The notes below the pieces were generated by a model. It was not told the DNA's origin. It made no database searches and was given only the letters and a program-made list of their open reading frames with translations. Below are positions 1-53,174 of a DNA stretch of 64,000 nt, one piece after another (within the stretch, counting starts at the first letter, position 1; each line of letters opens with the position of its first letter). The translations under genes were made by a program, and so were the position numbers. Location: NCBI GenBank assembly GCA_016748015.1, contig JAAOMT010000233.1, positions 127,422 through 191,421 on the forward strand, read 5' to 3'. The stretch is from Geosiphon pyriformis uo1. Its lineage: Eukaryota; Fungi; Glomeromycota.

Positions 1-2082
1 CATATATCCAACTGAACTAATAACAGAAGACAATTTCCAAGAAACATTGTTGAAAAAAACATATAACTTAATAGAAACACTAGAAAACAAGTGGCAAAGA
101 GCAGCTGATAATATTCAAAAGTCACAAAAAAAACAAAAAGAAAAACATGATAACCAACTATTGAATAAACCAGTTGAATTTACAATTGGAGACAAAGTAC
201 TTTTACATTATATCAAAGTAGAAAAACAATGGAGTGGAAAATTTGACTCCAAATGGAACAAACTATTTTACATAGAAAAAATTCTAAGAAATAGAGCTTA
301 TAAATTAATATGGGACAACAAAATCTTAGCCAAAACAGCACATGGTGATTGATTAAAACCATATCACTATATAGTATCATCATCCACCAATAATATTCTA
401 CAACTGGGAGTACAATAAATACTAATCCAACCAAATAAGATTTTATGAGATCTGGAACCAATTATAATCATTGAACCAAACACATCAAATTGAACAACCA
501 AAAGAGTATATAAAGACATGGTATATATGACAAAAACAACAAAGAAAATAGAAATACCAAATTATATTCACATCTTAGCACAACAATTGTTTCAAGTCTT
601 AAGTCAATAACAATTAAACATAGAAATTGTTATCAACTACCAAACAATCTGTTATTGAAACACCAAACAAAAAAAAAGTATATTATACCAGTAATCACAA
701 AAACAATTAAGAAACTGGTCAGATAAAATAGTAGAAAAAGTAAAAAACACTCTTGAAAAAATACCCATCATGATTTCAACAGAAGAACTTTCAAAAAAGA
801 ATTAGAAATAATAAACAAAACAACTTCCAATATCATACTGCTACTATTAGTTGGAACAAAAATTGAACATTTAAAAATTATATCTTAATAAAGCCAAAAA
901 AATATTCAATCAAAAAATAATACATAATATTAAAAAGATTATTAGAAAAAAGACAAATTTATTACTGCATATTAGAACAATCTATCGACTACACACAATA
1001 TTTCAAAATTATCCAGAAATATTGTTATACTCTAATATAGAAACAATCATCATTAATCAATAGGAAAGAATAAACAATGCACAAATCAAAAATATAAAAA
1101 ACAAAGTTAAACAAACAGTATTGGAAAAAAAAATATTAGACTTAATTCAAAGTAAAAATTTTGATAGAGCTCAATATTAAAAGGAGAAAATAATATTACT
1201 TATAAAGAAATTAAATAAAAAAAAATAGTAAGAAAACAGATAGACCAATAAGAAAATAGTAATTAGTACATAAGCATATTGCTTAGCAATATAGAGCAAT
1301 ATTAGAAATTATGGCATATTGTTCAGCAATATGAAGCAATGTTAAAAAGTTAGGACACATTACTTAACAATGTGAGCATTGCTCAAGAAATTATAGCACA
1401 TTGCTTAGGAATGTGAGTGATTTCATAGAATTTAAATTATGTATATATAGCAAGAGCATTAAAAGCAGAAAAGACAGAATAATTACCAAGACTTTTCTAT
1501 TATCACATCTATATTAGAATTATCAATATTAATAAATAATTATTCACTATTTAAATTACTTTTCCCATTATTAACACTTCATGTTAATAGTATTAAATAC
1601 TTGATCACACTAGAACAATAGCTTTTAATCATGGCTATTAATGAGATATTAACTTTATTGCTTTGGTTTATATTTTATTTTTTTAATTTTCTTTTGTATT
1701 TTATTTCTTTTGTTGTTTACTGATTAATTAAAAATTAAGCACTGAGTTATTGACATCATGGATGGCCTAGTAAAAAACCCAAATAAAAGGGTACAGAATG
1801 AGAATTTGGATAGCTTACTAGAAAAACATGACTGACAAAATAAACTGGCCACCAAGTTAAAGAAAAAAATTGGGAAACCCATTATAAAAAAATTGCACAC
1901 CATTGAATCTCTGTTTATTATACAAAGAATTCAAACAAAAAAAAACCTTCAGATTGTAAAATTTTCAGATTGTAAAATTTTTAGATTGTAAAACTTTTAA
2001 ACGTTATCATCAATTACAACTATTGAGCACCAAGTTATGGATTTGTTATTTGATTCAAGACCCCAAATAATTACCTGTAACA
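1..2082 (+). mobile_element. Element C, 3' end: integrase C-terminus, ORF3 remnant, PPT and 3' LTR (1194-2082)
   Basis: FTIGDKVLL..KQWSGKFDSKW..GPF-like integrase tail; LTR ends CCTGTAACA; homologous to 12464-14199 (minus) and 32659-33477. Confidence 0.88.
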
Positions 2083-18051: not shown

Positions 18052-19045
18052 TGTTACCAGTAGAATTTTAGCTATTAATTAGCATGAAATTACCCTTATA
18101 ATTCCTATAATTTATTAGTATATTAATATCATTTCAAATTATCATTTATTATTTAATCAATTATCACATATCACGATTCAATTAAAATAATCTAATTAGT
18201 ATAACAGAAAGTAGGATGATCAAATTACACAATACCCTGAACTTTGTAACATACAGAAATTCGCCGAAATTTATAAGAAATTCGCCGAAATTTACAGAAA
18301 TTCGCCAAAATTATGAATAGTTCACCCAAATTAATCAATAGTTCAGCGAAATAACTTGTAGTTCATCAAAATGTATCTTTAGTTCGCCAAAATTTGAGCA
18401 AAGAGAAAAAGTGCAAGTTCATAAACTAGTACTACAACAAGTTGTATAAAAAAAGAGCTTTTCTCTTCTGGAAAATGTATCTTACTTTAGATTTATCTCT
18501 TAAAACCGTTCCTATACACACAAAAAGAAATAAATATCAAATAATTCGAAAAAACCAAATTCTTTAATTATTGTACTTGGAAAAACCCCCAAAACCCAAC
18601 TAACATTTTGAAATTGATTAGCTACCAATTTCAGTAAACTGTTAGTGACTCCAGGCCTGAATAGAAAACGTTTCTCTTGATAAAATTTTATTTTTTTTAC
18701 ATTTCTTTTATTTTTCTTTTCTTTTCTTATTACAATCATTAGAGTAGCCTACAGATGAGATTCCTATAGAAGAGTTGACTTTCACAGCAAAATAACTACA
18801 CATTTTTAGTGAGCTTCCAGACGAGCAATTCCTGGGAAAAATTTAACATTTACTACAACGTAACTACATAAAGTAACTGGCAAGGAATCGGCCATTCTAC
18901 TTATAAGCCCAGCAGTTCAAATTATAGGAGATAATTTGAAGATAAATTCAGTTATTGGAGGTTCAACCACATTCAGAAAACGTGAATTCACAACAAACAG
19001 GCATCAACAACATTTAAAAAAAGAGACCAAAAACCTCTGGTAACA
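18052..19045 (+). repeat. 5' LTR of element A
   Basis: TGTTACCAG...CTGGTAACA inverted termini; matches 26699-27650 and 12791-13760. Confidence 0.96.
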
Positions 19046-19047
19046 TT

Positions 19048-19064
19048 TGGTGCTCTCCCACGGA
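19048..19064 (+). promoter_or_regulatory. Primer-binding site (complement of a tRNA 3' end, isotype not determined)
   Basis: TGGTGCTCTCCCACGGA 2 nt after the LTR; the same TGGTGCTCTC core, intact or decayed, follows the 5' LTRs of B, D and G. Confidence 0.88.
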
Positions 19065-19090
19065 AATAACACAGCAACAACAAATTCAAA

Positions 19091-21100
19091 GTGGCGACCA
19101 CACCAGACACAGCAACTCTAGAGTATTACCAGTCAATTTACACTCACTGCAAGCAAAGATGCAACATTCCAGACGGAATTGAAGTTGTAAAGAAATCAGT
19201 ATACCAATACATTGAAAACCGCATCAACAATTATCTTTTTGGAAACTACAACATTTCAGAAGTTAGAAGCAATCTCTACAATAATTTAGTGCACTATTCA
19301 CAATTGAGAACAGAAAACCTGAACAGTGAAACACTTGCTACCTACTTCCAAGAACTTAATTTTAATATTATTGAGTATTGTGAAGAAAAATACCCAGTAC
19401 AGTCTAAATACTCTTTTGACTTTGAATCAGAGACAGAAACAAACAACAAAGACAAACAAAGATTAAAACAATACTCAAGAACCACTTCAAACACTCCAAC
19501 ACTACAAAAGACAACTGCCAAACACTTGCAAACACCTGAACAAGGAACCAGTGTCAAATTACCGCTTTCTATTACACCATTTCCAATTTCATTTGTTCAA
19601 CCACAAACACCAAGTTCACCACTTAGCTATTTCTCCAGACCAAAAGATTTTCAGTCACCTAGAAATCCTACTCAACAGCAAAAACCAATATCAACAAGTG
19701 CCAATATCATTGATTACTTACAGGAAAACGAAAGTAATCACTCAGAAAGCTTGGAAAGTGAAGAAACTGAATCAGAACCAGAAAAAATTACAGAAAACGA
19801 AGAAGAAATGGCAACTGTTTATATTGCAAAAATCCCAGAATTCACTGATAAAGACAATGATACCAGTCCTCAAGAATGGCTTGACAAGGTTCAAAAAGCA
19901 GGAGATGCAAATGGTTGGATTGCAGCAAGAATGCTTAAAGCAATTCCCTACTTTCTCCAAGGAACAGCAGGAGAATAGTTTGAAAATTTAGAAAAACCAT
20001 TTGAAAACTGGCAAGCATTCAAAGATGCTTTTCTATAACAATTCACTGACAACAATACCTCTATTACTCTCAAAAACTGCTTTCACAATATCAAACAAGA
20101 AACATCTAAATCTGTTATGACCTATTTTAGAAGATTTAACAAACTTCTCAAACAAATTCAACAATTGAAAACCAATGACTACTATTTTGATGCTCAAATT
20201 CTGAATCAGTTTATAGCAGGATTAAAAGACAAACTGATTAAGAAAGTCCATCCACATGCTCCAGCAGACTTAGCAACTGCTATTAGACATGCAAAAAGCT
20301 ATGAAATGGCAATGGAAGAAGCAAATCACACCAAGCTTGTAAACCTTGCAATTGGAGAAACCAGCTCAACAGCTGAAAAAAAGATAGACCAACTCACAAA
20401 GAAAGTTGAAAGCTATTTTACAAACCAACAACAACAGCAGCAACAACCACAAAGATATCAACCACCACAATGACGCAACCAAAACAATTTTGGATTACCA
20501 TCCAACAACCAATCTCAAAATTGTCATTATTGTGGAATTCCAGGACACTGGAAACGAGATTGTAGGAAATTGCAAAGAGACCAACAAAATAGGAGTAATC
20601 AACATTACTCTTCACTACAACAATCTTATTACCAATTTCCACCACCAACCTATTATTCACCAAGACCACAAAATCAAAACTACTATCCACCAGCTCCATA
20701 ATCAATGCAGCAACAATATTAGCAACCTTTACCAATTCAGCCATATCAGACACCATCCACTCAACAATATCAAGTACCAGCAAGAAGATTGGTTCAACAT
20801 AACCAATTCACACCCCAAAATCAATTGCAGAATAACCACAACAGAATCAATCCAAATAACCAGTTGGTTCCCCAAAATTCGGGTCAGCAAAGACCCAATC
20901 ACTATCACACTCAACCCAGTTATCTTACAATACCAGAGGAATCGGATTTTCAACAAACTGCACTTTTTGAAGATGAAGTTGCAGCGCTAAGATCAAACTC
21001 TTCCAACCACACTATTCCACCAGTTCAAATTGCCCAAAATGCTAATCTGTCAGATATATTTCCATTTGAATTTGAAGCAAATGAATCACTATTTCTGCTT
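19091..21100 (+). pseudogene. gag: gag with N-terminal extension, capsid-like region, CCHC zinc knuckle and Q/N/P-rich tail (in-frame stops)
   Basis: KIPEF..SPQEWLDKVQKAGDANGW retrotransposon-gag motif; CHYCGIPGHWKRDC knuckle at ~20522-20563; ORFs 19091, 20117 and 20789 share one frame broken by point stops. Confidence 0.9.
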
Positions 21101-21139
21101 AGTAATGCAGCAGTCAATAAACAGAAAACAATTACTGCC

Positions 21140-21472
21140 ATGTACACAGAAGCTACAGTAGAAGGAAAACTCATTCACTCAATTTTAGATAGTAGATTAG
21201 CTGGAAGTATCATTACTTACCAGCTGATGCAACAACTCAAACGAAACATAGACAGACCAGTTCAAACAGTTATTGTCACAGCTGATAGTATGAAGAAGAC
21301 TTCAGTAGGAGAAATTGATAATTTCTCCTTTTCAATTGATGGAATTACCATTCCAGTTAAAGTTCTTGTTATGGATGCACCCCAATATCAAACTCTAGTC
21401 AGAAATGATTGGTTTCTCAAGGCCAATGCAAACCTGAACTGGGAAACTCAAGAACTTAAAATCTTATACTAA
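21140..21472 (+). pseudogene. Retroviral-type aspartic protease
   Basis: ILDS(R<G)LAGSII...VKVLVMDAPQYQTLV(R<G)NDW, a decayed DSG active site with a GNDW-type motif. Confidence 0.88.
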
Positions 21473-21694
21473 GGACAATATACCATAGTACTTGTAACCT
21501 GTGGTACCTTTAACAAACAATCAGAAAAAGCTCCAGTATTTGAATTTGAAGAAAAGAAAGAAATGCCACTTACTGAAACCTACATGGCTCTTGGATCAAC
21601 ATCCAATTGGGCTGAAGAAACTGAACAAAAGATTTTTGAAAAATCAAAGTGATAGAGGAAAGTTAAATATTCTACACCAGAACCACAGAAACAA

Positions 21695-22335
21695 CCACCC
21701 TATATTCCACTCAAATGCAAAGATTGCAACAAAAAACTTTCATCAATGGGAGCATGTATTTCTCCAGAAGAGGAATATGAAACTTATACCTGTTACTTTT
21801 GCAAAGCATGCCATAAAAAACGATTTGGATCTCCAAAAAGAAGTAGAAAATGGGACAACACACCTTGCTTTACATGTGAAGAAATGCTACCAGAAGAATG
21901 CAATTAGATTGATGTAGCAATGAGAGGAGGAGTATGTGATCAAACCTGTCAATATGCTCTATCAATTTCGAAAAAAGTCAAAAGAGGAACACCATTTGAT
22001 GCAGCATACAACAGTGCTTTCAATAAACTTTACCACTACTCTCATAATGCTGAAATGATTTTTGACTTAGCAATGGCATTGATTAATAGAGCCACCTAAG
22101 AAAATGTTTGCCAAATAAAAGAAGCTGAATATATTGAGTATACCATGGAATTAGCTGGATTTGATTATGAAGATAAAGTAGAAACCTACCACTAAATTGC
22201 AAGCCACACATATCCAACCAAAGAAGCTCAAATTCAACGATTAGAGCAAATGAACATTCAATTGTGTAAAGAATGTGTTATGCCTTGTGATAACCAATGG
22301 TGTTTAGAATGTTATGCTCTTAGCATTCCTCTGCC
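21695..22335 (+). pseudogene. Cys-rich putative zinc-binding domain of unknown function within pol
   Basis: In the gag-pol frame: CKDC..CYFCKAC..CFTC..CDQTC..helical stretch..CKEC.MPCDNQWCLEC; homologues in B, D and G. Confidence 0.7.
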
Positions 22336-22429
22336 AGATGAGAATGATGAAAATGAAATCGAATTTGGAGTATCTGAACTAGTAGAAGAACTACCAACCA
22401 CTCCCATCTATCTTCTTGAAAAGCAATCA

Positions 22430-22865
22430 CTTCTACAACTTAAATATTTTGACAACCATGGCCAAGGAATCAGACCAGAAAAAGCACACAAAATTGATGC
22501 TGGATATGACCTAAGATATTCAGGAAAAGATACTTTGATTCTCCAACCAAAGTCTTTGACAAAAATCAATCTCAAAATTGCTCTTGAAATTCCACCAGGA
22601 GCAATGATTCAAATTGCCTCCAGATCATCATTGGCAAGCAAAGAAATCAATATTAGAGGAGAAGTTATAGATGCAGGATACACTGGAGACATTACCATTA
22701 TGTTACAGAATGAGACAGACAAACCATTCAAAATTGAACATGCTGAAAAAATTGCTCAAGCAATTTACTTACCCTTAATCAACATTTCGGGTTTACAATC
22801 AGTAAACAACAGAGAACAATTAGGAAAAGTGAAAGAGGAACTCAAGGTTTTGGTTCAACTGGATG
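22430..22865 (+). pseudogene. dut: Trimeric dUTPase domain within pol
   Basis: Motifs I-V: DAGYDL, SRSSLA, (G)VIDAGYTGDI, KIAQAI, and RGTQGFGSTG after a 1-nt deletion near 22825. Confidence 0.93.
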
Positions 22866-23299
22866 ATTTACAGTCCCAGCAAACATAGTTCTTAATACAC
22901 AAAATGAATCTTACCAGATTTTTCAACTTCCTCAGCCAATTACCATTTCACCTTTTGGAGAACATCACGAAATTTACACTTGCTCAAAACCCACCACTAC
23001 ACAACAAATCTGTTTGAAGCATGAAATATCAATTTCAAACATTTATATTCCCAAAAGAATAAAAAAATTTCGAGTTACATTCTACAACCCCAATAATTAC
23101 CCTATTGTTTTATTAAACAAATTAGAAATTGGAATCATACACAGCAATATCTTTCAAGATGAAAACCCTCAAATTATATCTAATTTCATCGAAATTGTAA
23201 AGCACACTCGACTCCCAAATCCAAATATTATTCTCACTACTGAAAACTACCACTTGTTGGAAGAAAAACTTTCTCAAATTAATATGGGTCTCTTAGAAT

Positions 23300-24690
23300 C
23301 TCAACAACAAAGACAATTGAAGCAATTAATAGCTGAATTTGCAGATATATTTGCAAAAGACAACAATAACTTGAGAAAAACAGACATTGTTCAACATCAG
23401 ATCCATACAGGAAATGCTCTATCAAAACGTCAACAAGCTTATCAAGTGCCACCTGCCAGCCACCAATTCATTAGAGAAGAGGTCCAAAGAATGCTCAATA
23501 ACGGATTGATTTAACCATCAAGAAGTCCTTGGGCCTCACCAGTAGTTTTAGTTAAAAAGAAAAACGGAAAAATCAGATTCTGTGTTGATTATAGACAACT
23601 GAATAGTGTTACAATTGGAGATGTCTACCCTCTTCCAAGAATTGATAACATGCTAGATGCTCTAGGAAAAGCCAAGTTCTTTTCAACTTTAGACCTGGAA
23701 AGTGGATACTGGCAAGTCAAAATGGACCCAAAAGATAGACTCAAAACAGCATTCACCACTCAAGGAGAAAATTATGAGTTTAATGTTATACCTTTTGGAC
23801 TCTGCAATGCATCAGCAACATTTCAGTGACTCATGGATGTTGTCTATAAAGGGCTTTTGTGGCAATCAGTAGTTGTTTATCTTGATGATACTGATGTATA
23901 CTCACCAAGCTTTGAAGCCCATCTTATTTACCTGCAAGAAGTTTTTCAATGATTACGGAAAGCAGGATTAAAGTTAAATATTAAAAAATGTCACTTTGGA
24001 AAAACAAGTTTGATCTTTCTTGGACACATAGTTAGTAAAGATGGAATCAAACCAAATCCAGGAACAATCAGTGCTGTCAAAAACTTTTAAACCTCCAGAA
24101 ATACTACAGAACTAAGAGGATTTGTGGGATTAGTCTCTTACTATCAAAAATTCATAAAAGGATTCTCAGAAATTGCCAAACCACTCAATTATCTTATCAA
24201 CAAAAACGTACCATACAAATGGACTAAAGAACAACAAAAAGCTTTTGAAATTCTCAAAACAAAATTAACAACAGCCCCAGTTCTTGCTTACCCAGACTTC
24301 AACAAACGATTCCAATTAGCCACTGATGCCTTACATATAGCATTTAGTGCCATCTTATCACAATTGGATGAAAATGGCCAGGAACAAGTTATTGCCTATG
24401 TCAGCAGAACACTCAAGCCAACAGAACTCAAATATGGCTCAACTGAATTAGAAGCTGCTGCAGTTATTTGAGCTCTTAAACATTTTCAACAATATCTGAA
24501 GAATGGAAAAGAATTTGACATAATAACAGACAACATTGGCCTCAAATGGCTCAATAAAAAGAAAACTGAACAAAGTGCCAAACAGTTTTGATAGAATGAC
24601 TTCCTAGCAGACTACAGATATATTGTACACCACAAATCAGGAAAACTACATATTAATGTTGATAGCCTCTCAAGAATGAGACAAGATTAA
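23300..24690 (+). pseudogene. pol: Reverse transcriptase and RNase H (Ty3/gypsy)
   Basis: SPWASPVVLVKKKNGKIRFCVDYRQLN, LDLESGYWQV, PFGLCNA, YLDD (~23878), FQLATDA, YGSTELEAAAV. Confidence 0.95.
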
Positions 24691-24747
24691 TACCAACAAC
24701 AATTCCACCACAACTTACCAACTTACCAACAAAATAACCAAACAAAA

Positions 24748-25868
24748 ATGGATCCCAGAAACTACAGCAATCTTAAAAATTATTTGAAGACTTTTACCAT
24801 GCCAGAAAACTGGTCTCCAAGTGAAAAATACCGCTTACAACACCAATTAAAACAATATTTCATACACCAGAACAAAATCTATTATAAAAATCACAGAAAA
24901 CCAAACCAGCCACTCAGATTAGTACAAGAGAATGAAAAAGAAACAATTTTATACAACATGCACACAAATCCGTCTTCAGCACACTTGGGAAAAGAGGGAA
25001 CAATTCAAAGAACTCTTGAACATTATTTTTGGCCTCATATACAAAAAGACATTCGACAATATGTAGAATCTTGTGATAATTGTCAAAAAAGAGGAGGAAC
25101 TCACCCCACAGAACCTTTAAATTCAATCAAAGTTGGACAACCTTTTGACAGAGTTGAAATTGATTTAGTCGGACCATTACCTATCACAACCCAAGGAAAT
25201 TGTTATATTGCAGTTGCAGTGAATTATCTTACCAAATAGCCTGAAGCTAGAGCCATCCAAAGAGCAGATGCAAAATCAGTAGCAAATTTCATCTATAAAG
25301 ACATTATCTGTAGACATGGATGCCCAATTGAACTCTTATCTGATCAAGGAACACATTTTGTGAACAACTTGATACAAGAAATTTGTGAATGGTTCAATGT
25401 CAAAAGATCTTTATCATCACCTTATCACCCTCAAACAAATAGACTTGTAGAACATTTCAACAGAACATTGTGTGAATCTCTAGCCAAAGTCTCAACAAAC
25501 TTTGAACAGGAATGAGATATCTTTATTCCATTAGTGTTACTAGCATACAGAACACTAAAACAAGATACTACGAAANNNNNNNNNNNNNNNNNNNNNNNNN
25601 NNNNNNNNNNNNNNNNNNNNNNNNNNNNNNNNNNNNNNNNNNNNNNNNNNNNNNNNNNNNNNNNNNNNNNNNNNNNNNNNNNNNNNNNNNNNNNNNNNNN
25701 NNNNNNNNNNNNNNNNNNNNNNNNNNNNNNNNNNNNNNNNNNNNNNNNNNNNNNNNNNNNNNNNNNNNNNNNNNNNNNNNNNNNNNNNNNNNNNNNNNNN
25801 NNNNNNNNNNNNNNNNNNNNNNNNNNNNNNNNNTTATAATAGAACAACAACCAAACTTGAACACTTAA
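24748..25868 (+). pseudogene. pol: Integrase (HHCC + DDE); C-terminal part falls in the N gap
   Basis: H..AHLG..YFWP..CDNCQ; IDLVGPLP; SDQGTHF; YHPQTN.LVEHFNRTL. Confidence 0.93.
25576..25833. other. Assembly gap (N run)
   Basis: Run of N; the homologous interval in B (~50790-51320) is about twice as long. Confidence 0.99.
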
Positions 25869-26010
25869 ATTTTACAATAATTCTCTAATAAAAACACAAA
25901 GACAAAAATAGTAAATAATTACAAAACACTCAAACCCAAAGACAAATAAAAACCCCATATCCAAAAATCATTTTCTTTATTCTCTCTTTTCATAATTAGT
26001 CAATTTTATT

Positions 26011-26718
26011 ATGATTATTCCCCGAAATATTCAACAAATATCCCAAAAATTAATGTTAGCCTTGAAAACACTCCCTGACTTATCTATAACGATTAATGGA
26101 AGTCAAATTAAATACATTCAGAAAGAAACCACAGCCCCAGTAGCAAATCATTTACAGAATTATCACCCCTATAGAAGAAAAACAAGAAGTCACTTTGAAA
26201 ATAGATTACCAAGACTTTTGAAGCAGGCACTAGAAGAAAATCTTTTAATTGCCCCTATTGACATTCCACCAAATGCTACAATACAACAAAAACTTTTACT
26301 ACTTTTTAATAAACAGAACAATGAACACACCCCTATCTATAAATACTTTCAAATTAAAAAAACACTTTATGAACGAAAACTGGTACTTGAAGCAACAAAT
26401 CTCACTCCTAAAGTTATACAAAAACAAATCCACAATGAATTCAAAACAGCAGCTGAACCAACAAACACTCGCTACAAACTTAGAGCAGCTCTTAGACTCT
26501 ATGACTTGTTTAATACTTGTGAAAATATTTTACAAAATCCAATACTGCAACCAATGAAAGTCCAATATATTGGCAAATTCACAGAACTGAAATTTCAACA
26601 ATTTTCAGACCAGATTACTTCAATTATTTTAGATCACTATCTCAATATTACAGATAGTGCTTGGACTTTGACAGAGCTCAGTCTTGAGAAAGAGATTATG
26701 TTACCAGTAGAATTTTAG
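26011..26718 (+). CDS. ORF3: intact 235-aa accessory protein downstream of integrase, function unknown
   Basis: Uninterrupted ATG-initiated ORF running over the PPT into the 3' LTR; homologous motifs at the same position in B, C, D and G. Confidence 0.8.
   Translation: MIIPRNIQQISQKLMLALKTLPDLSITINGSQIKYIQKETTAPVANHLQNYHPYRRKTRSHFENRLPRLLKQALEENLLIAPIDIPPNATIQQKLLLLFNKQNNEHTPIYKYFQIKKTLYERKLVLEATNLTPKVIQKQIHNEFKTAAEPTNTRYKLRAALRLYDLFNTCENILQNPILQPMKVQYIGKFTELKFQQFSDQITSIILDHYLNITDSAWTLTELSLEKEIMLPVEF
26684..26698 (+). promoter_or_regulatory. Polypurine tract of element A
   Basis: TGAGAAAGAGATTA directly before TGTTAC of the 3' LTR; similar tracts in B, C, D and G. Confidence 0.75.
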
Positions 26719-27650
26719 CTATTAATTAGCATGAAATTACCCTTATAATTCCTATAATTTATTAGTATATTAATATTATTTCAAATTATCATTTATTATT
26801 TAATCAATTATCACATATCACAATTCAATTAAGATAATCTAATTAATATAACAGAAAGTAGAATGATCAAATTACACAATACCCTGAACTTTGTAACATA
26901 CAGAAATTCGCCGAAATTATGAATAGTTCACCCAAATTAATCAATAGTTCAGCAAAATAACTTGTAGTTCATCAAAATGTATCTTTAGTTTGCCGAAATT
27001 TGAGCAAAGAGAAAAAGTGCAAGTTCATAGACTAGTACTACAACAAGTTGTATAAAAGAAGAGCTTTTCTCTTCTGGAAAATGTATCTTACTTTAGATTT
27101 ATCTCTTAAAACCGTTCCTATACACACAAAAAGAAATAAATATCAAATAATTCGAAAAAACCAAATTCTTTAATTATTGTACTTAGAAAAACCCCTAAAA
27201 CCCAACTAACATTTCGAAATTGATTAGCTACCAATTTCAGTAAACTGTTAGTGACTCCAGGCCTGGATAGAAAACGTTTCTCTTGACAAAATTCTATTTC
27301 TTTTACATTTTTTTTATTTTTCTTTTCTTTTCTTATTACAATCATTAGGGTAGCCTACAGACAAGATTCCTGTAGAAGAGTTGACTTTTACAGCAAAGTA
27401 ACTATACATTTTAGTGAGCTTCCAGACGAACAATTCCTGGGAAAGAGTTGACATTTACTACAACATAACTACATAAAGTAACTGGCAAGGAATTGGCCAT
27501 TCCATTTATAAGCCTAGTAGTTCAAATTATAGGAGATAATTTGAAGATAAATTCAGTTATTGGAGGTTCAACCACATCCAGAAAACGTAAATTCACAACA
27601 AACAGACATCAACAACATTTAAGAAAAGAGACCAAAAATTTCCAGTAAAA
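26699..27650 (+). repeat. 3' LTR of element A
   Basis: Direct repeat of 18052-19045, 42 bp shorter (two fewer TTCGCCGAA units). Confidence 0.96.
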
Positions 27651-28167
27651 ATAGTAATATTTTTCAAGATAAAACTTCTTAAATTGTCTTTAATTTCATT
27701 AAAATTATGAGACATACTCTTCTTCCAAATCCAAATATTCTGTTTATTATTAAAAACTATTATTTTATTGAGAAAAAACTTTTTTGGATCAACATAAGTT
27801 TCTTAGAATTCCAATAACAAAGATAATTAAAACAATTAATTGCCAAATATGCTGATATATTTGTCAAAAACAACAATAATCTTGGAAAAACTAATATTGT
27901 GCAGCATTAAATTTACATAGAAATTGCTTTACCAAAATGTTAATAAGCTTATTAAGTCTTATTTGCTAGACACCAATACATTAAAAAAAAAGTACAACAA
28001 ATACTTAACAATAGTTTCATCCAATTATTAAGAAGTTCCTGAGTCTTATCAATAGTTCTTATCAAAAAAAATAGAAAAATCAGATTTTGTGTAAATTATT
28101 ATTAACTGAATAATATTATAATAAAAGATACTTATATACTATTAAGAATTAATAACATGCTGGATGT
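27651..28167 (+). mobile_element. Element B: RT N-terminal piece between insertions A and D
   Basis: Colinear with A 23141-23660; resumes exactly after the TSD. Confidence 0.9.
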
Positions 28168-31100
28168 TGTTACAGATAAACTTGGTAGTATATGGTAATA
28201 ATATTTGGTGCTTAAAATTTGGGGTTTTTAGGGAGCTTTTAATGGTTTTTTTTTGGTAGGCTCATTTATTGTGTCAATATTATCAGTTTCTGAAGATCTT
28301 TTAGATTGTTATGAATTTATCTGTAGAGTTCTTTAGTTATAAGGCACAGAGAGATGTTTTGTAGTATTGCAATGTCTTATATGTAAATATAAGCTATTTT
28401 TTCCAAGCTAATAAGCACAATTGTTAAGGTCTGATAGTGTCTTTTCACTCTTTTGATAAGCTACCAAAATAATGTTAATATTCAAATTTAGAAAGAGCTT
28501 CTTTCTTTTACTAGACTATTACAAAGTTTATTTTTAGACAGTCAATTTTTCTATATTGTTACTCCACAAGAGAGAATTAAAAATAAAATAAAATAAAATA
28601 AAAAAATAAAATAAAAAATAAAAAAATAAAAAAAGATGAATTAGTATTGTCAATTGTCATGATCAAGAGTGATTGGTCCAGGTTATTAAGAGTTTGAGGC
28701 ATTTATGCTAAGAGCATCTGTCCTGAAATAAAAAGATGAAACAAAGATTAGTTCAATTTAAATACAAGATAATTGATAACTATGTATCAAAAATTTTGTA
28801 GTTTTCAACTAAGTCTTTTATTTTTGTAAAATGTAATAATTATAAGAAAAAGGAAAATTGATTCTTATTTGAATGTTTTTTTAACTTCTATAACTACTCA
28901 TTTTTATACATTTTTTTTGGTTCTATAAGATTGCTTTTTAATTGTTTTGTTTTTGCTAGTTATTACTTTGCTATTTCTGTTATCATTTTATTTTTCTATA
29001 TTATTACTAGTTATCTTATGTTTTAACTAATTATTTTATGTTATAATATATTATCAAATTTTGTATTATATTATTCTAAGTTATTATGTATTATTATGTA
29101 TTCTTTTATGTTATTCTGTCCTATTTTATGTTGTTATGTTTTTGGTTACATTTTCTCTATAACTTTGGATTGGTTTTTCTATTTAGGTAACATTATCCCT
29201 CTTTTTTTAGAATTGAGCTTTTGCAAAATTATATCTATCTGTAATAATTGTATTTTCTGTTTAGTATTTGATTGTTGTATCAAATATTGCTTTTTGTAGG
29301 TTTTTAAACTGTGTATTCATTATTTATTCTATGTTGTTGACCATAATAGTTGTTAATAAGCTGTCTAATAGTACAGCTAAACAGTATTTGAATGCTGAAT
29401 ATAAACAATATGCTGTTTTGTAATTCAGTATTAGGTTGCTTCTTTCTACAAATTTTTCTACTTGTTTAAGGGCCACTTTGTTGAATGTCTAATGGTTGTA
29501 GTTTTTGTATAATGTGCTCAATCTTAGTTGTTTACTAATCTTATAAAACCAATAGACTAGTGGAAGTTTTTCTTTCCATATTCTGGTATTGTATAGTGTC
29601 CATTTTTCTGTTGCTGGTTCTTTAGTTATCCTACTTAAAGCTTTTTTGATTTCTTTGAGCTTTATATGACATGTATCTATTTTTGTTACTTTCTTTCTCT
29701 TTTTATTTGTGTGGAGTTTTCTTTCAACATATCTTTTTTTTTTTTGCCCTCTTTTTTTTTTTAATTATTGTGTAGAGCACTAATTACCAGAATAAAGAGT
29801 CATTCATAGGGATGAGATTGTTCAGTTTTAATTGAACTTTTACTCACCTCTTTTCTGTTTTTGTCTTTGTATCATATCTCTTTTTTATCAATTGTAATTT
29901 CTATTTGAATCATAGAGTATTGAATTGCATCAAATAGTTGTTTCAAAAGTTGTAAAATTAGATTTAATAGGTTTATGTTACAAGTTTTATTGATTTATTC
30001 TTGTTGTTTTAATGATTATATATACTTAAATTTTCCAATTAAATAGTTGTGTATCAATTATGTTTTGATAATAATAATTAGTTCTAGATTTTGTAGTATA
30101 TTTTCAGGTCTAATTAATCAAATTTGTATTTTTAGTTGAGATATGAATAACAATAACTCTTGTTTTGTATGATAAATTTTTAACCAATTTTCATGTGCTA
30201 TTTTTTTTAAAATTTTGTTTTCCAATTGTAATTTGTAAGCTCTGTTGCCTAAAACTTTGTGTATGTGGAATAAACTGTCCTATTTTGGATCAAACTTTCC
30301 ACTCCACTGTTTCTCAACTTTTGTACAATACAATAGTACTTGGTCTCTAATTTTAAATTCTATTGGTTGTTTAGGTAGACAGTTATCATATCTTTCTTTT
30401 TGTTATTTTTAAGCATTACTAATGTTATCAGCTGCTGTTTTGCAATTGTCTTCCAATGTTTTTATGAGCTAGTATATTCTTTGGTACAAGATAGCTTCAA
30501 AATTTTTTTTGGTGATTACTTTTGTTAGATAAAACAGTATTTCTCATTCAATAGATAAAGTGGCTTTTCTTTTATAGACTAATTCAAATAATATGAACTG
30601 AATCATATCTTGTTTTAATGTTCAGTATATAAATAATATGAAAGATATAAATAAGTCTCATTCTTGTGCATTTTCATAGCATATTTTTGCTAATGCTTCA
30701 CACAACATCTAGTTAAATTGTTCTACCAGTCTATTTGTTTGTGAGTAATATGATAACAATAAGGATCCTTTTTATTTCAAACTATTGGCTTAGTTCAGTT
30801 AATATACTATTGACAAAGTGAGTTTTTTGGTCTGATAATAATTTTTTTAGGCATTTATGTTGGCAAATTAAGTATTAATGTACAAATTCAGTTACTGTTT
30901 TAACATTGGTCACTTAGATTGCTTTGGTTTCTGGCTATTTTATAAGATAGTCTATTACTATGGCTATATAATGATTTTTTTGGATGTAATTGAGAGAAAA
31001 CCAACCAAATTGCTTCTAATTTTATCAAATAGATTTTTAATTAGAATGAATCAAAGTAGTTCTATTGATTTTGTTTCTCCTCTTTTTTGGCAAGAGTCAC

Positions 31101-32658
31101 AATTGAGCATGTATTCGACAATATCTTTATATATTATTGGCCAATAGTATTAGTTTATGGTTTTTTCTAGAGTAGTGTTTTTGTTGAAATGTTCTGCAGT
31201 TGGATCAAAATGCATATTATGTAAAATAGTTTTTTTTATTGTCTTTTATAATTTATTATAAAGTGGTACAGTTTTAATATTCTTGACAATATAGTTAGTT
31301 ATTTTGAATAAAGTATATTTAAACATGTTTTTGTATAATATTCTGTTTCTGTTGAAGTAAAATCTCTTTAAACTGAAGTGTTAATAAGTACTTATATAAT
31401 TGCTAATAAGTAATTGTATCTATAGATTTGAGACTAGACTTGTGTTATCTTTGACAAGCTGTTAGAATTAGCATTTTTGAATCTTTTTTTGTAATGAACT
31501 TTGTATAGAAATTGTTGCAGATAAGTATTCCATCACACATATTTTTCTTCTGATTGTGATTTGTTAAATAACTAAATAAGCTCTTTATAATTGGTTAAGA
31601 TAATGTTTTCAAGTATATATGGCTTAATAGATGGCAAGACATTCCAAATCCATTGCATTGTATATTTTCTCTGCTGAATTTGTGCTATAACTAGCATATA
31701 CAATTGAATATTTTCTGTTGTCTAATTCAATTTGGAACAGAACTACTCCTAATGCATTTTTCAAGACATCTGTTGCAATCATAAACTTTTTGTTGAAGTT
31801 GGAGTAGATTAAAATTGGTGCTATAATCAATTGTTATTTGAGATAATTAAATGCTTCTTGCTGTTTTTTCTCTAAAAATATGGCACATGTTTCAATAGTA
31901 AGTAGTAGAAAGATTTGGCAATATCTGAAAATTTTTTAACAAACCAATAATAGTATTCAACCAGTCCTAAGAATCCTTTTAGTTCTTGTAAATTAGTTGG
32001 AACATTGATATTGTCCAGATATACTATGACTGATTTTCATAGAATTCTTTTATACATAATATTCATTAGTTATTAAAAGGTAGTAGAAGTGTTGCAAAAT
32101 CCAAAAAGCATTATATTGAACTCAAAATTTCTATCTTGTATGGTAAATACCATTTTTTTTTGTATTTTGGATCTATTTCGACTTGCTAATATCTGTTGAC
32201 AAAATCTAAAGATGAGAATTATTTCTTCTTAAATTGTTCAAAATTTTTTGAATGAGTGAAGTGGAATAACTATCTTCATAAGTAATATTATTTAGTTTCC
32301 AATAATCTATACAAAACGTTATCTTTTCATTTTTTTTTATAACTAATACAATTAAAAAGAACCAAGAGTTTAACAATTCTTTGATCAGATTATTGTCAAA
32401 TATTCATTGTACCTCTTGTTTGATTAGATTATTGCCTATTGGATTTACTTTATAGATTTATTGTTTAATAGGTTGCATGTTTTTCATGTCAATCTGGTGT
32501 TTAATAATATTGGTGTATCTGAACTTATTTTTACTGGCAAAAACATCAGCATACTAATTTAAAAGAACCTTGAGTTGTATTTGCTGTAGAGTACTTAAGT
32601 TTCCTAAATTTAATTTGTTAATTTCTTCCAATGTAAACAAGTAACTTTTTTTTAACAG

Positions 32659-37669: not shown

Positions 37670-40600
37670 TATTATGGGTAAACTTGGTAAAATAGAGAAA
37701 TGGTAATGTTTAGTGCTCTTAAGTATTGGTAATGTGTGTTTCATGTAATTTTAGTGGCTTAATTTTTAATTATCAGTTTCTAAAAGTCTTATTTTACTGG
37801 TTGTGAATTTACTTATTAAGTTTTTTGGTTATAAAGTATAGAGTTTTGATTTTCACTAATTGCAACTTTTTATAAAGATGAGCTTTCTTCTCTGAGCTAA
37901 TAAATGCAGTCATTAGGATCTAGTGTTGTCTTTTTGTCCTTTTGGTAAGCTATCAAGATAATATTAATATCTAAATACTTAGGAGGAGCTTTTTTCTTTT
38001 ACCAAGCTATTATAAAGTCTATTTCCAGACAGTCAATTTTACTATGTTGCCACTCCATAAGAGAAAAATAAAAAAAGAAAAAAAAAAGAAAAAAAATAAA
38101 AAAAATAAAAGAAAAGATAAATTAGTATCATCAATTGCCATGATCAAGAGCAATTGGTCCAAATCATTAATAGTTCGAGGTGGTTATACTAAGAGCATCT
38201 GTCTTGGAATAAAGATACAAAACAATGATTAATTCACATAAATTTCACAAAGTTTGAAAACATAAATTTGTGATTCTGATTTCTTAATAATTGATTTATT
38301 TCAGAAGATAAATATGGAATATAATAAATAATGAAAGAATATAGATATTTGATTCTTGTCTAGAAATTTGTATCTAAATGTTTTTCTATTTTCTTCAACT
38401 ATTTGTTTTTATATATTTTTTTGGTTTTATAGAATTGTTTTTTGATTGTTCTGTATTTGCTAACTATTGCTTTGCTATTTCTGTAATTGCTTTGTTCTTT
38501 TACATTAATACTAGTTATCCTATGTTATAATATATTATCTGGTATTATTACATATTATTCTGTATTATTATATGTTATAATACATTATTCTGTATTATCT
38601 TTAGTTATAATGCATTTTCTAATGTTATTGTGTACTATTCTGTGTTATGTCACATTTTGGTCATATTTCTTTATAACTTTGGATCAGTTTTTCTACTTGG
38701 ATAATATTATCTCTCTTTTTTTAGAATTGAGCTTCTGTGAAATTGTATGTATCTATTATTATGGCTTTGTTTGTGTAGTGTTTAATAATTGTGTCGAGTA
38801 TTGTTTTTTGTAAGTTTTTAAACTATTGATTGGTTATTTGTCCTATGTTATTAACTGTTATAGTCTTTATAGATCTATATAACAGTATATTTGGACAATA
38901 TTGGAAAGCAGTATATAGTTGGTATGCTGCTTTATAATATAAGATCAGGTTGCTTTTCTCAATAAATTTCTCTACTTGTTGTATTGCTTCTTTGTTAAAA
39001 GTTTTCTGGCTGAGATCTCTATATGGTGTCTTCAAATCTAGTTGTTTACCAATTTTGTAGAACTAATATGTTAGCAAAAGTTTCTCTTTCTATTTCTGGA
39101 CATTATCTGGTATTTATTCTCCTGTTTCAGAGAGTTTGGTTCCATGAACTAAAGCTTCTTTGATTTCTTTGAGCTCAGAAACCACATAATTTTTATAAAC
39201 TTTTTTTATTCCTGGTTTTATCCGAGAAGAAGCTTTTTACCAATTTTCTCTCTCAGGTATTAAGTAGGAGTAGGATCATTTAGTTCTAGTTGAACTCTCG
39301 TCCTTCTTTTTTCTGTTCTTATCTTTATATCATATCTCTTTTCTATTAATTGTCACTTCTATTTGAGCAGAAGATTGTTGAATTGTGTCAAATAGTTATT
39401 TCAAAAGTTGTAGAATTTAATCTGACAAGTTTATGTTGAAAGTTCTATCATTTTTTGCTGTTTTTTGGATGCTATATATATTTGAATTCCCTAATTTAAT
39501 TTGCTGTACATTGTTTATGGTACAATGATGATGATTGGTTCTAGATTTTGTGGTATATCTTTTGGTCTGATTAATGAAATTTGTGTTTTTAATTGAGGTA
39601 CTGATAATGATGATTCTTGTTTTGCATGATAAATTTTTAATTAATTTCTATGTACTACTTTCTTTAAAATCCTGTCTTCTAATCATAATTTGTAAGCTCT
39701 ATTGTCTAAAACTTCATATATGTAGAATAAACCATCCCACTTTAGATTGAACTTTCTACTCCATTATTTCTCAGCTTTTGTATAATGTAATAGTATTTGG
39801 TCTCTAATCTTGAATTTCATTGGTTGTTTAGATAGTTGTTTATTATGTCTTTCTTTTTGTTGTTTCTGAATATTACTAATGTTGTTAGTTGCTGTTCTAT
39901 AATTATTTTCTAATATTTCTATGAGCTGATATGTTCTATGGTATAAGATTGCTTTAAAATTCTCTTCAGTAATAGCTTTTGTTGAGTATAACTGTATTTC
40001 TTTTTCAATAAGTAGAGTGGTTTTTTTTTCATAAACTAATTCAAATAGTGTGAACTAAGTCATATTTTGTTTCAGTGTTTGGTATGCAAAAAGTACAAAA
40101 AATATGAATAAGTCCCATTCTTATTTGTTTTCATGACTTATTTTTGTTAGTGCTTTACACAGTGTTTGATTAAATTATTTTACCAATTCATTTGTTTGTG
40201 GGTGATATGGTAACAATAAAAACTATTTTATTCCAAACTGTTGACTTAATTCGGTTAACATATTATTTACAAAATGCATTCCTTGATTAAATAGCAGTTT
40301 TTTTGGACATCCATGTCTGCAAATTAGCTCTTGGTATATAAACTCAGCTACTGTTTTTGCATTTGCTACTTGGATAGCTCTGGCTTCTTGCCATTTTGTT
40401 AAATAGTCTATGATTACAGTAATATAACAATTTCTTTTGGATGTTATAGAGAAAGTACCAACCAAATTGATCCTAATTCTATCAAATAAATTTTCAACTG
40501 GAATAGGTCGAAATGGTTCTGTTATTTTGGCTTCTTCTCTTTGCTGGCATAAGTTACAATTGAGCATGTATTCAAAAATGTTTTTGTATATTATTGGCCA

Positions 40601-49024: not shown

Positions 49025-52000
49025 ATATCCTAAGAAAAACCAAGTTCTTTTTAACTTTAGACTTGGAAAGCAGATACTAACAAGTTGAAATAGATTTTAA
49101 AAACCACTCCAAAACAGCTTTTATCATTTAAAAAAAAACTATAAGTTTAATATTATGTCTTTTTAACTTTATAATATATTAATAACATTCCAAAAATTTA
49201 TGGGTGTTGTTTATAAAAAACTTCTATGATAATTAGTAATTGTTTATTTTAATAATACTAATATATACTCTTCAAGTTTCAAAGCTTATTTGATTCATCT
49301 ACAAAAAAGTTTTTCAACAATTATGAAAAACAGAATTAAAATTAAACATTAAAAAATATTATTTTGAAAAAATGAGTTTGATCTTTTTTGGATACATAGT
49401 CAGCAAAAATGGAATTCAATCCAACTTAAAAATAATTAGTACTGTTAAAAACTTTCAAGTTTTTCAAAATACTATAGAATTAAGAAAATTTATAGAATTA
49501 ATCTCTTATTACCAAAAGTTTATTAAAAATTTTTTTGAAATTGCCAAACAACTCAATTATTTAACAAATAAAGATATTAAATATTAATAGACTCAAGCTT
49601 AACAACAAACATTCAATACTTTTAAAGAAAAATTTATTATAGCTCCAATTTTTGCTTATTCAAATTTTAGCAAAAGATTCTAGTTAGCCACCAATGCATC
49701 ACATACAGCTTTTGGTGCAATTTTATTACAATTAGATAACAATAACAATGAATAAATAATTGTATATGTTAGTAAAATACTTAAGTCAACAAAACTTAAA
49801 TATGGCTCAATTAAATTAAAAGCAGCAGCTATTATCTGAGCTCTTAAATACTTTCAACAATACTTTCAAAATGAATCTTAATTTAATATTATCACAGATA
49901 ATATTAAATTTAAATAGCTTAATAAAAAAAGTTCAGAATTCAGTTCAAAGCAATCTTAATAAACTGGTTTTCTAGCCAATTACAAATACATTATACATTA
50001 CAAACCAAGAAAATTACACCCAAATGTTGATAGTTTTTTCAAAATAAGGCAAAATTAAGACTTATATTAGTAATCTAATAACTTAACAAAAAAATTAGTA
50101 ATAAAACAATAGATACCAAAAATTACAACAATATCAAAAACTATTTAAAAACTCTTAATATATTAAAAAATTGGTCTTCAGTTAAAAAACACTGATTACA
50201 AAACCAAGTAAAACAATACTTTATTCATTATAACAGAATCTATTACTAAAATTACAAAAACTCAACAAATTTATTTAGATTAGTCTAACAAAATAAAAAA
50301 AACTATCTTATATAACATATATACAGATTTGTGATTAGTATATTTAAAAAAAATAGTACAATTTTTTAACAGAGTTAGTATCAATTTAGTTAGATCACTA
50401 CTCATTATAATTCAAAAAAACTGTTATATTGCAGTTGTAGTAAATTATTTTATCAAATAGCTCAAAGTTAAAGTTATTTAAAAAACAGATGTAAAATCAG
50501 TAGCAAATTTCATTTATAAAGACATTATTATAAATATAGATGCCCAATTGAATTTTTATTTAATCAAAAAACACACTTTGTAAACAACTTAATACAAAAA
50601 ATTTGTGAACAATTAAAAGTTAAAAAACTCTTATTATTATATTATTACCTCCAAACAAATAGATTAATAGAATATTTTAACTAAATATTATGTGAATTAC
50701 TAGCCAAAATCTCAACCAATTTTGAGCAAAAATAAAATATCTTTATTTTATTAGTGTTACTAATATATAAAACACTAAAACAAGATACTATAAAACACAT
50801 ACTATTTGACTTTACATATAGAAAAACAGCAATATTATCAATTAATTTTACAGTAAAAACATACCTAATACAATCAATTAATAAAAAAAACTTTCAAAAA
50901 ACACTCTAATAAAGAGCTTACATCTTTTTTAATATGTTGAAAAAAAAAAGACAAATAGCAGCAATTCATATTAAACATTTTTAAGCTCAATAAAAAAACA
51001 GCATGATATCAAATTGACATTAGTTATCAACGAATTTAAAGTTAGAAACAAAGTTTTCTTACATAAAACTAAGGCTAAAAAACAATAGAATAGAAAATTT
51101 GAACATAAATAAGACAGATTATTTTATATTTACAAAATTTTAGGCAATAGATTAAACAAGTTAAGACTTGATAACAAAGTTCTAGTCAAAGTTGCACATA
51201 GAGATTGATTGAAGCACTGTTATTCCAAAAACAATTCTAAATCATTAATTCTACAAATTAGTACACATTCTCTTTTAATTAATTTTGAAGATATTTTCTA
51301 AAATTTAGAATTAATAGTTGTAATAAAACAATAACCAAAGCTGAATATTTAATTTATTTTATCAGGATTTTTTTTAAAATAATACAGAAACATTAAACAA
51401 AAATAAAAAATAACCACCAGAAAATATCCATACCAAAAATATATAAAACTCTTATACCAAAAATAATTTCTTTCTTATTTTTTGTTTTTACAAATTTATT
51501 TAATTTTCATTTAACTTTATAATACTTATTTTATAAAACATTCAACAAATACTCTAAAAATTAATGTTAGCTTTAAAAACACTCCCAGACTTATTTATAA
51601 CAGTCAATAGAAGTCAAATTAATTACATTCAAAAAAAAACTACAGCTCTAATAGTAAATAATTCTCAGAAATATTATTTTTATAGAAGAAACACAAAAAA
51701 TTATTCTGGAAGTTAATTACCAGAACTTTTGAAGCAAGCTTTGAAAAAAAACTTATTATTTACACCCATTGACATTTTTTTAAATGCCACAATATAACAA
51801 AAACTTCAAATATGTCTTAATAAAAACAGTAAATATACCCTAGTTATAATATTTTCAAATTGGAAAAACACTTTACCAATAAAAACTGGAACTCAAAACA
51901 ACCAATCTCACTTCTAAAGTAATACAAAAATGAATACACAACAAATTCAAGACAACAGCTGGACTAACAAATGTTTGTTATAGATTTAGAGCAGTTTTTA

Positions 52001-53174
52001 AACTCCATAACTTATTTAATACTTGTGAAAACGTTTTACAAATTCAATATTTTAACCAATGAAGATTCAATATATTGGCAAGCTTACAGAACTGAAATTT
52101 TAACAATTTTCAGACCAAATTACTTCAATAATCTTGGATCACTATCTCGAAATCACAAATAGTGCTTGGCTTTAATGAAGCTCAGTTTTAAGAAGAAGAT
52201 TATGTTATTAATAAAATTTTAACTATTAAATTAGCAGGCAATTACTTCTATAATTCCTATTATTAATTAGCATATATTAATATTGTTTCAATTATTACTT
52301 ATTATTTAATTAAATTATTAAATATCACTATTTAATTAATAAACCGATTTGTACAATAGAAATTAAGATAATCAAATGACACAATACTTCGAACTATGTA
52401 ATATCTAAGAATTGGCCAAAATTTGTAGAAATTTACTGAAATAATGAGTAATTTATTAAAATAGTTAATAATGCAATGAAATAATTTGTAGGTTATTGAA
52501 ATATATTTTTAGTTCATCGAAATAATAGCAAAGAGTAAAGTTTAAGTTTATAGACTAGTACTATAACAAATTGTATAAAAAAAGAGATTTTCTCTTTGAG
52601 AAAATATATCTTACTTAAAATTATCTCATTTAAATTTACTTTTAGTTAAAAACAATCGAAATAAAAATCATACTTTAAAAAAACCAATTTTTTAATTAAT
52701 TGCACTTGAAATTTCCCAAAAACCCAACTAATGTTTGAAATTGATTAGCTACCAATTTCAGTAAACTGTTAGTGATTTCAGGTCTGAACCAAAAACGATT
52801 CTCTTTACAAAATCTCATTTTTTTTACATTTCTTTTATTTTTTTTTATTTTTATTATTATAATTATTAGGATAGTCTACAGATGAGTTTTCTGTAAAAAA
52901 GTTAACTTTTACAGCAAAATAACTACACATTTTTAGTAAGCTTCTAGATAAACAATTCTTGGAAAAGAGTTGACGTTTATTACAATGTAACTATACAAAA
53001 TAACTGGCACAAAATTGGCCATTTTACTTATAAGCCTAATACTTCAAATTATCTTCTATAATTTGAAAATAAATTCAGTTATTAGAGATTCAATAGCTTT
53101 CAATAAACATGAATTAAAACAGCAAATGAACATTAATAACAATTAAAAAAAGAGACCAAAAATTTTTAATAATA
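49025..53174 (+). mobile_element. Element B: RT, RNase H, integrase, ORF3 and 3' LTR (52203-53174)
   Basis: Colinear with A 23657-27650; ORF3 remnant at ~51520-52230; followed by GCAC (53175-53178). Confidence 0.92.

Follow-up and report, generated by a model that had tools for sequence, protein, structure and literature searches.

The 64,000-nucleotide stretch analysed here (the window) contains, at positions 26011-26718, an open reading frame in the env position of an LTR retrotransposon, which raises the question of whether this frame is a gene of the element and, if so, what its product does. The original prediction, made from the letters of the window, held that the frame (ORF3) is conserved across several element families and encodes a soluble, helical, non-membrane accessory factor, and that its intactness stands out against a gag-pol region carrying many stops. 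The frame is intact, running for 235 codons from ATG to TAG after the integrase stop (25868), but it is not notably so: with 20 stops in 2125 gag-pol codons, the probability of encountering none in 235 is 0.11, and the argument from intactness in this copy therefore fails. The gag-pro region of the same element (element A) holds stop-free stretches longer than ORF3 itself, of 302 and 249 codons.

Element A is a complete Ty3/gypsy LTR retrotransposon, with ORF3 as a third gene between the integrase and the 3' LTR. It is laid out as follows:

18048-18051 and 27651-27654: target duplication ATAG, 4 bp, flanking element A
18052..19045, + strand: 5' LTR of element A, with TG...CA ends
19048..19063, + strand: primer-binding-site-like stretch, beginning TGG
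19070..24690, + strand: decayed gag-protease-dUTPase-RT-RNase H region (Pfam matches; junctions inspected)
24748..25868, + strand: integrase, a separate ORF with its own ATG, the C-terminal part partly inside an N gap
25869..26010, + strand: integrase-ORF3 spacer, 142 nt, 3% G, without an ATG
26011..26718, + strand: ORF3, ATG to TAG, 235 aa
26675..26695, + strand: AGCTCA(A/G)T motif followed by the polypurine tract (PPT, 26686-26695), both within ORF3
26699..27650, + strand: 3' LTR of element A, the end reading AA, not CA

Pfam matches to gag, protease, dUTPase, RT, RNase H and integrase fall in Ty3/gypsy order, and a stop directly after the RNase H DxLSR-type motif closes the 19070..24690 region. 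Gag to RNase H was likely one frame, since the frameshift near 22830 is present in A only. The N gap (25576-25833) falls in the integrase and outside ORF3, which starts 142 nt past the integrase stop in a different frame, reads through the PPT and finishes 20 nt inside the 3' LTR, its last six codons and stop sitting in that repeat. The two LTRs differ at 44 of 951 aligned nucleotides, and 42 of the 44 differences are transitions.

Homologues of ORF3 had been proposed in four other elements of the window (B, C, D and G) and perhaps in a fifth (E). Searching the window with a profile HMM built without C, D or G placed them as follows:

51525..52222 (end approximate), + strand: ORF3 homologue B, A lineage, with 8 stops and a frameshift near 51800
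545..1180, + strand: ORF3 homologue C, in a single frame with 9 internal stops, ending just ahead of the PPT
29207..29965 (start approximate), - strand: ORF3 homologue D, with stops and a frameshift near 29790
38721..39434, - strand: ORF3 homologue G, in a single frame with 9 internal stops, ending just ahead of the PPT

Scores were 128 and 92 bits for B (two frames), 73 for G, 48 for C and 40 for D (with 7 more in a second frame), against a maximum of 2.9 bits in 20 reversed or shuffled windows, which makes the alignment across families significant; no other match in the window rose above 0 bits, and the suggested copy in E was not recovered. As B forms the 3' half of an element that is a sister to A (76% alike in nucleotides) and D and G are alike at 74%, the five copies represent three lineages (A/B, D/G and C), between which ORF3 identity is 18-31%. 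Homology across lineages thus stands, but the proposed several families come down to these three within the window. Similarly, the expected position between integrase and PPT holds for C, D and G, in all of which ORF3 stops just before the PPT, but not for A, and the N- and C-terminal motifs that had been singled out are present in the translations, but at the central motif A reads YFQIKK, not YFxIG. ORF3 has been kept in 5/5 of the 3' ends in the window with a recognisable integrase-LTR interval, as well as in an element from elsewhere, L001, described below.

The elements form a four-level nest (12791-53165) in which an element A' (12791 on, with B as its 3' half) holds A and D, and D contains G plus a C-type LTR (32659-33477); another C-type LTR is split around 12464-14197. 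In A, A' and G a dUTPase separates protease from RT (at 22196-22888 (+) in A). Ahead of the Gag capsid match of A, a long N-terminal region (19070-19450 (+)) lacks a Pfam match, and near the primer-binding site there is no obvious ATG; the long leader region of G at this place differs from that of A. At 46758 and 48015 (-), just inside the 5' LTRs of G and D, a partial reverse complement ~30 nt after the primer-binding-site-like stretch could fold over it. Elsewhere in the window, 62224-63865 holds an 800-nt repeat in two copies, with a 17-nt pyrimidine-rich unit arrayed in both; 60253-61028 (-) holds adjacent open frames of 198 and 101 aa in higher-GC DNA outside the LTR elements; and a 439-nt duplication at 55928-57093, 99% identical and lying across a 20-nt N gap, is likely an assembly artefact.

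Beyond the window, a homologue search recovered 206 proteins among 451 candidates; such searches took in near-length proteins only, and longer fused forms were seen through one separate search. The 120 matches listed are without exception gene models of Geosiphon pyriformis, with identities of up to 92%, which makes this fungus or a close relative the likely source of the window. Of these 120 near homologues, 90 end in the PPT-encoded tail, which we use as a proxy for LTR linkage. Further lineages are represented by the group of P0149 and by the D/G group, which includes a stop-free 244-aa model (P0165), and four metagenome proteins (P0148, P0154, P0150 and P0155) are related at ~28-31% identity. 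Among Atlas look-alikes of the P0148 core, the best two are Mucoromycota clusters, at 0.94 (170/256 features) and 0.93 (164/256), a lead to a wider fungal family. Viral contig scans with ORF3 and with the L001 integrase, and a phage tblastn search, gave no match. Locus L001 itself repeats the layout of A, in the order RT-RNase H, stop, integrase, 316-nt spacer and intact ORF3, the last likewise crossing the PPT into the LTR and being 28% identical to that of A. L001 is nearer to A (64% for integrase, 28% for ORF3) than G is (50% and 24%), and the two genes agree in this, as expected of vertical co-inheritance.

At least 60 extra residues are found in 48 of the 190 ORF3 proteins retrieved, with an integrase piece upstream in 23 of the 48, any gag or pol piece in 30, and none detected in 18. 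Decayed integrase or other element pieces are spliced onto ORF3 in P0039, P0041, P0051, P0085, P0116, P0166 and P0169-P0175. Such ORF3-fused G. pyriformis gene models are likely to be annotation chimeras, not natural fusions. The recognition of ORF3 also explains some 190 retrieved 'hypothetical protein' records as genes of transposons and not of the host.

Whether ORF3 has been maintained as a protein was judged from substitution patterns. The Nei-Gojobori pN/pS of 0.41-0.47 was set aside, as it came out no different in a shifted frame, and transversions were compared instead, since decay in these elements consists almost entirely of transitions. Pooling the A-B and G-D comparisons, ORF3 transversions occur at 0.049 at 0-fold and 0.143 at 4-fold degenerate sites, a ratio of 0.34 (p = 0.0013), while the corresponding ratio is 1.08 and 2.70 in the other two sense frames, 0.89-2.52 in LTR controls and 0.15 in a pol control. 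With transitions included the ORF3 ratio is 0.82 and not significant (p = 0.19), and one of the three antisense frames gives 0.50 (p = 0.043). Between A and L001, DNA aligns over pol but in ORF3 only over 32 nt at the PPT, whereas the ORF3 proteins align end to end. From the transversion ratio, and from proteins that align where DNA does not, we infer that ORF3 is under purifying selection, as befits the conserved gene originally proposed; this selection is weaker than that on pol. Conservation and selection span the whole 210 residues, far past the cis signals of the tail.

The genes around ORF3 are themselves arranged in an unusual way. In 5/5 elements (A, B, D, G and L001) a conserved stop follows RNase H and the integrase restarts past a short leader, at 24688-24750 (+) in A, ~50055-50110 (+) in B, ~31400-31450 (-) in D, 40880-40900 (-) in G and 772-801 in L001. 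The restart is at ATG in A, G and L001 and at ATA in B and D, and is in a different frame in G; the leaders of A and L001 are without any G, and P0058, a gene model from another copy, starts at the integrase ATG. The integrase is thus not in the Pol polyprotein, a variant of the Ty3/gypsy architecture in which its separate ORF is unusual, and the stop-restart layout means that the element needs two downstream ORFs expressed.

Spacers between integrase and ORF3 are likewise poor in G (3-4% in A, B and L001). A splice acceptor ahead of ORF3 was rejected as a general mechanism, the AG at -13 behind a pyrimidine tract in the spacer being present in element A only, and no sequence common to spacer and LTR was found across elements (one of nine comparisons at 4/200). 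ORF3 is out of frame with the integrase in A, G and L001, and so is not an in-frame integrase tail; in A and L001 it begins at an ATG of its own, after 142-316 nt. In the decayed copies C and D it lies in frame with the integrase behind one TGA and three stops, respectively. The AGCTCA(A/G)T motif and the PPT are present in 6/6 elements (the motif at 26675-26682 of the window and ~3092-3100 of L001) and are read in different frames, which suggests that AGCTCA(A/G)T is a cis signal for reverse transcription or integration; the tail ELxLEExIML of ORF3 reflects these signals.

The product of ORF3 looks soluble and helical, as had been anticipated. The 19-residue Kyte-Doolittle maximum is 0.44-1.33 in 11/11 proteins, and at the N-terminus, where a signal peptide would sit, the hydropathy maxima over 9 residues (0.70-1.86) fall within a predicted amphipathic helix. 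We take ORF3 not to be Env, as hydropathy indicates no transmembrane segment. In a Pfam scan of 32 proteins no fusion-protein family came up; in a separate search haemagglutinin HA2 appeared at E 0.2. An AlphaFold model (46 sequences) has a mean pLDDT of 71.7, with 77-92 over residues 71-210, and comprises a low-confidence helix and beta-hairpin (5-37), a disordered linker (39-61) and a helical core (~61-210) predicted to consist of five to six helices, followed in A by the tail encoded by the PPT and the start of the LTR. Conserved in seven representatives are I7, L14, I26, I33, P53-Y54, L74, Y110, Y112 and L119, and also T151-N152, R162-L163-Y164, F167, L174 and I202. The linker (pLDDT <50) contains [RKH]x2-5PY in 6/6 stop-free lineage representatives, although composition alone yields this motif 5-22% of the time per linker; it is absent from the decayed window copies C and G. 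The motif fits the PY-NLS consensus R/H/K-X2-5-PY as given in the accessible text of PMC2408616. Isoelectric points range over 5.2-9.9 (9.3-9.7 in four Geosiphon-type copies, 7.1 in P0002 and 5.2-5.9 in three metagenome proteins), a variation in charge that speaks against a strongly basic DNA binder.

No significant match to ORF3 was returned by Pfam, PHROGs, NCBIfam or PDB-sequence scans, and Foldseek searches of PDB and viral structures with two models gave none at E<=0.001. The best VIA-align scores (Z 6.4 and 5.5) lie in the range usual for common helical arrangements; in both kinds of fold search the N-terminal hairpin region was barely covered. Matches in a whole-protein Atlas search were all below 0.9. 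ORF3 showed no known domain above cut-off in these searches; GDSL, DEDDy, PMD and Tr28 in particular gave no Pfam match, and the predicted core is all helical, without an alpha/beta catalytic fold.

Below significance, several hints fall on the same part of the core, ~residues 109-176. DUF1016_N (PF17761, or YhcG-N) appears in 5 of 32 proteins at E 0.028-0.12 and 12.9-15.0 bits, against a curated cut-off of 32.8. An hhalign comparison with a 65-sequence YhcG-N alignment scored 23.7, above 99/99 block shuffles (maximum 21.8), at a probability of 11.6% for a family picked post hoc from 24,736, and fell to 0.7% with a whole-length, shallow alignment. DUF3102 was tried as the family of ORF3 and found no support (hhalign 0.7%, while YhcG-N against DUF3102 gave 82%); we take YhcG-N and DUF3102 both to be ParB-like helix-turn-helix domains. 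ParB/Spo0J DNA-binding domains superpose with 60 positions aligned at Z 3.8 (rmsd 3.2) and with 91 at Z 3.5 (rmsd 5.6); for the SigmaF chain 1l0o_C, 57/57 positions align, at Z 3.7-4.9 and rmsd 2.4-2.7. ORF3 resembles YhcG-N/ParB in a Y/W-x-I-G helix, a second helix and then an N...R-x-Y/F-x-x-F helix in the same register, but differs in its scores of 13-15 bits and in having no attached nuclease domain. Separately, a match to phrog_23683 (best E 0.0045) recurs at residues 115-171; it was seen in 8 of 15 proteins, each from the A lineage, and no member of that family was found in the 305 genome searches scored. These sub-threshold hints suggest that the core may be a YhcG-N/ParB-like helical DNA-binding domain.

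That ORF3 is a real, selected accessory gene other than env is, in our judgement, highly probable. Its function is a more tentative matter, for which our preferred reading, plausible though somewhat short of probable, is a regulator that binds nucleic acid in the nucleus and acts in trans on the LTR DNA or chromatin of its own element. This reading draws on the import-like motif, the helical core with its helix-turn-helix-like hints, the 3' position of the gene and a host that hypermutates these elements; among the roles first suggested (anti-silencing, nucleic-acid binding or targeting), the evidence leans, weakly, to nuclear nucleic-acid binding. In that case a clade of Ty3/gypsy elements, likely one of Glomeromycotina, would carry ORF3 as an old third gene kept by selection, and the protein would be expressed either from a sub-genomic message or through reinitiation across the G-poor spacer. 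The linker motif would bring it into the nucleus via transportin/Kap104. Contact with DNA would fall to the helix pair 133-147/153-167, with T151-N152 and R162-L-Y-x-x-F167 conserved, and the effect would be stronger transcription of the element family or its protection from methylation silencing, as with foamy-virus Tas or plant VANC. The host's mutation of these elements from C to T and G to A (42 of 44 LTR differences) would favour such a counter-silencing factor.

The layout of the element can also be read in favour of an RNA-level or translational trans-activator like caulimovirus P6/TAV, which would bring about reinitiation on the integrase ORF and on ORF3 itself along a polycistronic genomic RNA. 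The conserved stop and short leader ahead of the integrase in 5/5 elements, with the other frame in G, the gene model P0058 that begins at the integrase ATG, and G-poor leaders and spacers with no common splice acceptor all suit this idea, and TAV, from a reverse-transcribing virus, promotes reinitiation after long ORFs according to the accessible part of PMC5902531. The same text, however, has short stop-start leaders working by termination-reinitiation without a viral factor, a TAV-family Pfam match is absent, the PY-NLS-like motif suggests the nucleus, and the helical domain of PNPase, though among the top fold rows (Z 5.1-6.4), matches within noise; we therefore think a TAV-like role unlikely. 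Similarly improbable, in our view, is an integrase cofactor, that is, a nuclear-import and chromatin-tethering subunit split off the integrase and steering insertion into other LTR elements or heterochromatin. The integrase ends ~30-50 residues past its SH3-like domain, with no room for a chromodomain, and copy C has ORF3 in frame with it across one TGA, but in A, G and L001 the two genes differ in frame, and in A and L001 ORF3 starts at a separate ATG 142-316 nt further on. The repeated nesting of elements in one another within the window would fit such steering, yet is expected anyway where LTR elements make up 41.2% of the genome, as in G. pyriformis (from the available portion of PMC11952901), and the CHD1 C-terminal domain, top or second fold row at Z 5.5-6.2, is again within noise.

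Two other readings we consider very unlikely or, in equivalent words, hard to credit. ORF3 could be a passenger, a captured common Glomeromycotina helical domain without a role in transposition, held open mostly by its overlap with cis signals: the best two Atlas clusters for the P0148 core are Mucoromycota proteins (0.94 and 0.93), and the AGCTCA-PPT-LTR signals constrain the C-terminal tail, in different frames per lineage. Selection and conservation nevertheless extend over the whole 210 residues, far outside those signals, and ORF3 is retained in L001 and in 5/5 window 3' ends with a recognisable integrase-LTR interval. Its Env position would also allow an RNA-coating or particle protein that stands in for Env and aids spread along the coenocytic hypha. 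A closterovirus coat cluster does appear in both Atlas searches (0.89 and 0.92), but these rows have 132 and 146 of 256 features in common, fewer than the 170 that true members of a family typically share, and viral and PDB fold searches gave no match at E<=0.001. Drosophila elements have non-Env infectivity factors, as far as the consulted text of PMC11952523 goes, but the factor described there is transmembrane, and ORF3 has no such segment.

Returning to the preferred reading of ORF3 as a nuclear regulator, one may go further and regard these as 'complex' fungal retroelements of three cistrons (gag-pol without integrase, integrase, and ORF3), in which ORF3 would be a master trans-activator of a new family, acting on the LTR and/or the integrase in parallel to Tas and TAV, and would have helped LTR elements to take ~40% of the genome despite methylation-driven decay. 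We put this forward as a speculation, and a doubtful one. Should ORF3 act for its element in some such way, it would be a specific candidate explanation for the rise of gypsy elements to 41% of the Geosiphon genome.

Extra ORFs in LTR retrotransposons are common and mostly unexplained. Retroviral nef and bel2 are accessory ORFs that overlap the PPT and U3. The closest parallel in layout is with the Ty3/gypsy Vesta and Juno families of bdelloids, which carry non-envelope ORF3s: as set out in the accessible text of PMC5408684, they share with element A a third ORF between pol and the 3' LTR, a dUTPase in pol and ORF3s of 210-240 aa, but those ORF3s are Env-like, GDSL esterases, DEDDy exonucleases, or coiled-coil or transmembrane proteins. 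The ORF3 described here matches none of these, is predicted to be mostly alpha-helical and soluble, and follows an integrase that is a separate ORF. Plant Tat/Athila/Ogre elements likewise have extra Ty3/gypsy ORFs without known function, PMD and Tr28 among them, although these are often antisense or upstream of gag (PMC4408406, in its available part). Among fungal gypsy elements, one family has a dUTPase between PR and RT and an 'additional ORF with unknown function' in the accessible portion of PMC2864245, but the elements of that survey bear chromodomains and come from other fungi and plants.

For the way ORF3 may work, the models are foamy-virus Tas/Bel1, which shares its 3' position, and plant VANC, element factors that act on their own promoter or counter silencing; accessory and anti-silencing TE proteins are described from Arabidopsis (PMC13547354, accessible part). 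Caulimovirus P6/TAV likewise comes from a reverse-transcribing element whose separate ORFs follow one another and whose accessory gene lies at the 3' end (PMC5902531, same part as above). No sequence or fold similarity to ORF3 was found for Tas/Bel1 or VANC, and none was found for P6/TAV. TAV is about twice the length of ORF3. Among the titles and opening lines of abstracts covered, none describes this ORF, and none a free-standing integrase in fungi of this kind. Already known, from the accessible parts of PMC5408684, PMC4408406 and PMC2864245, are non-Env ORF3s in Ty3/gypsy elements of bdelloids and plants, as well as an extra ORF in the survey of fungi and plants. New in comparison with these systems are a predicted soluble ORF3 without a convincing match to known families and an unusual three-cistron layout, in which polycistronic expression can be put to the test for a fungal retroelement.
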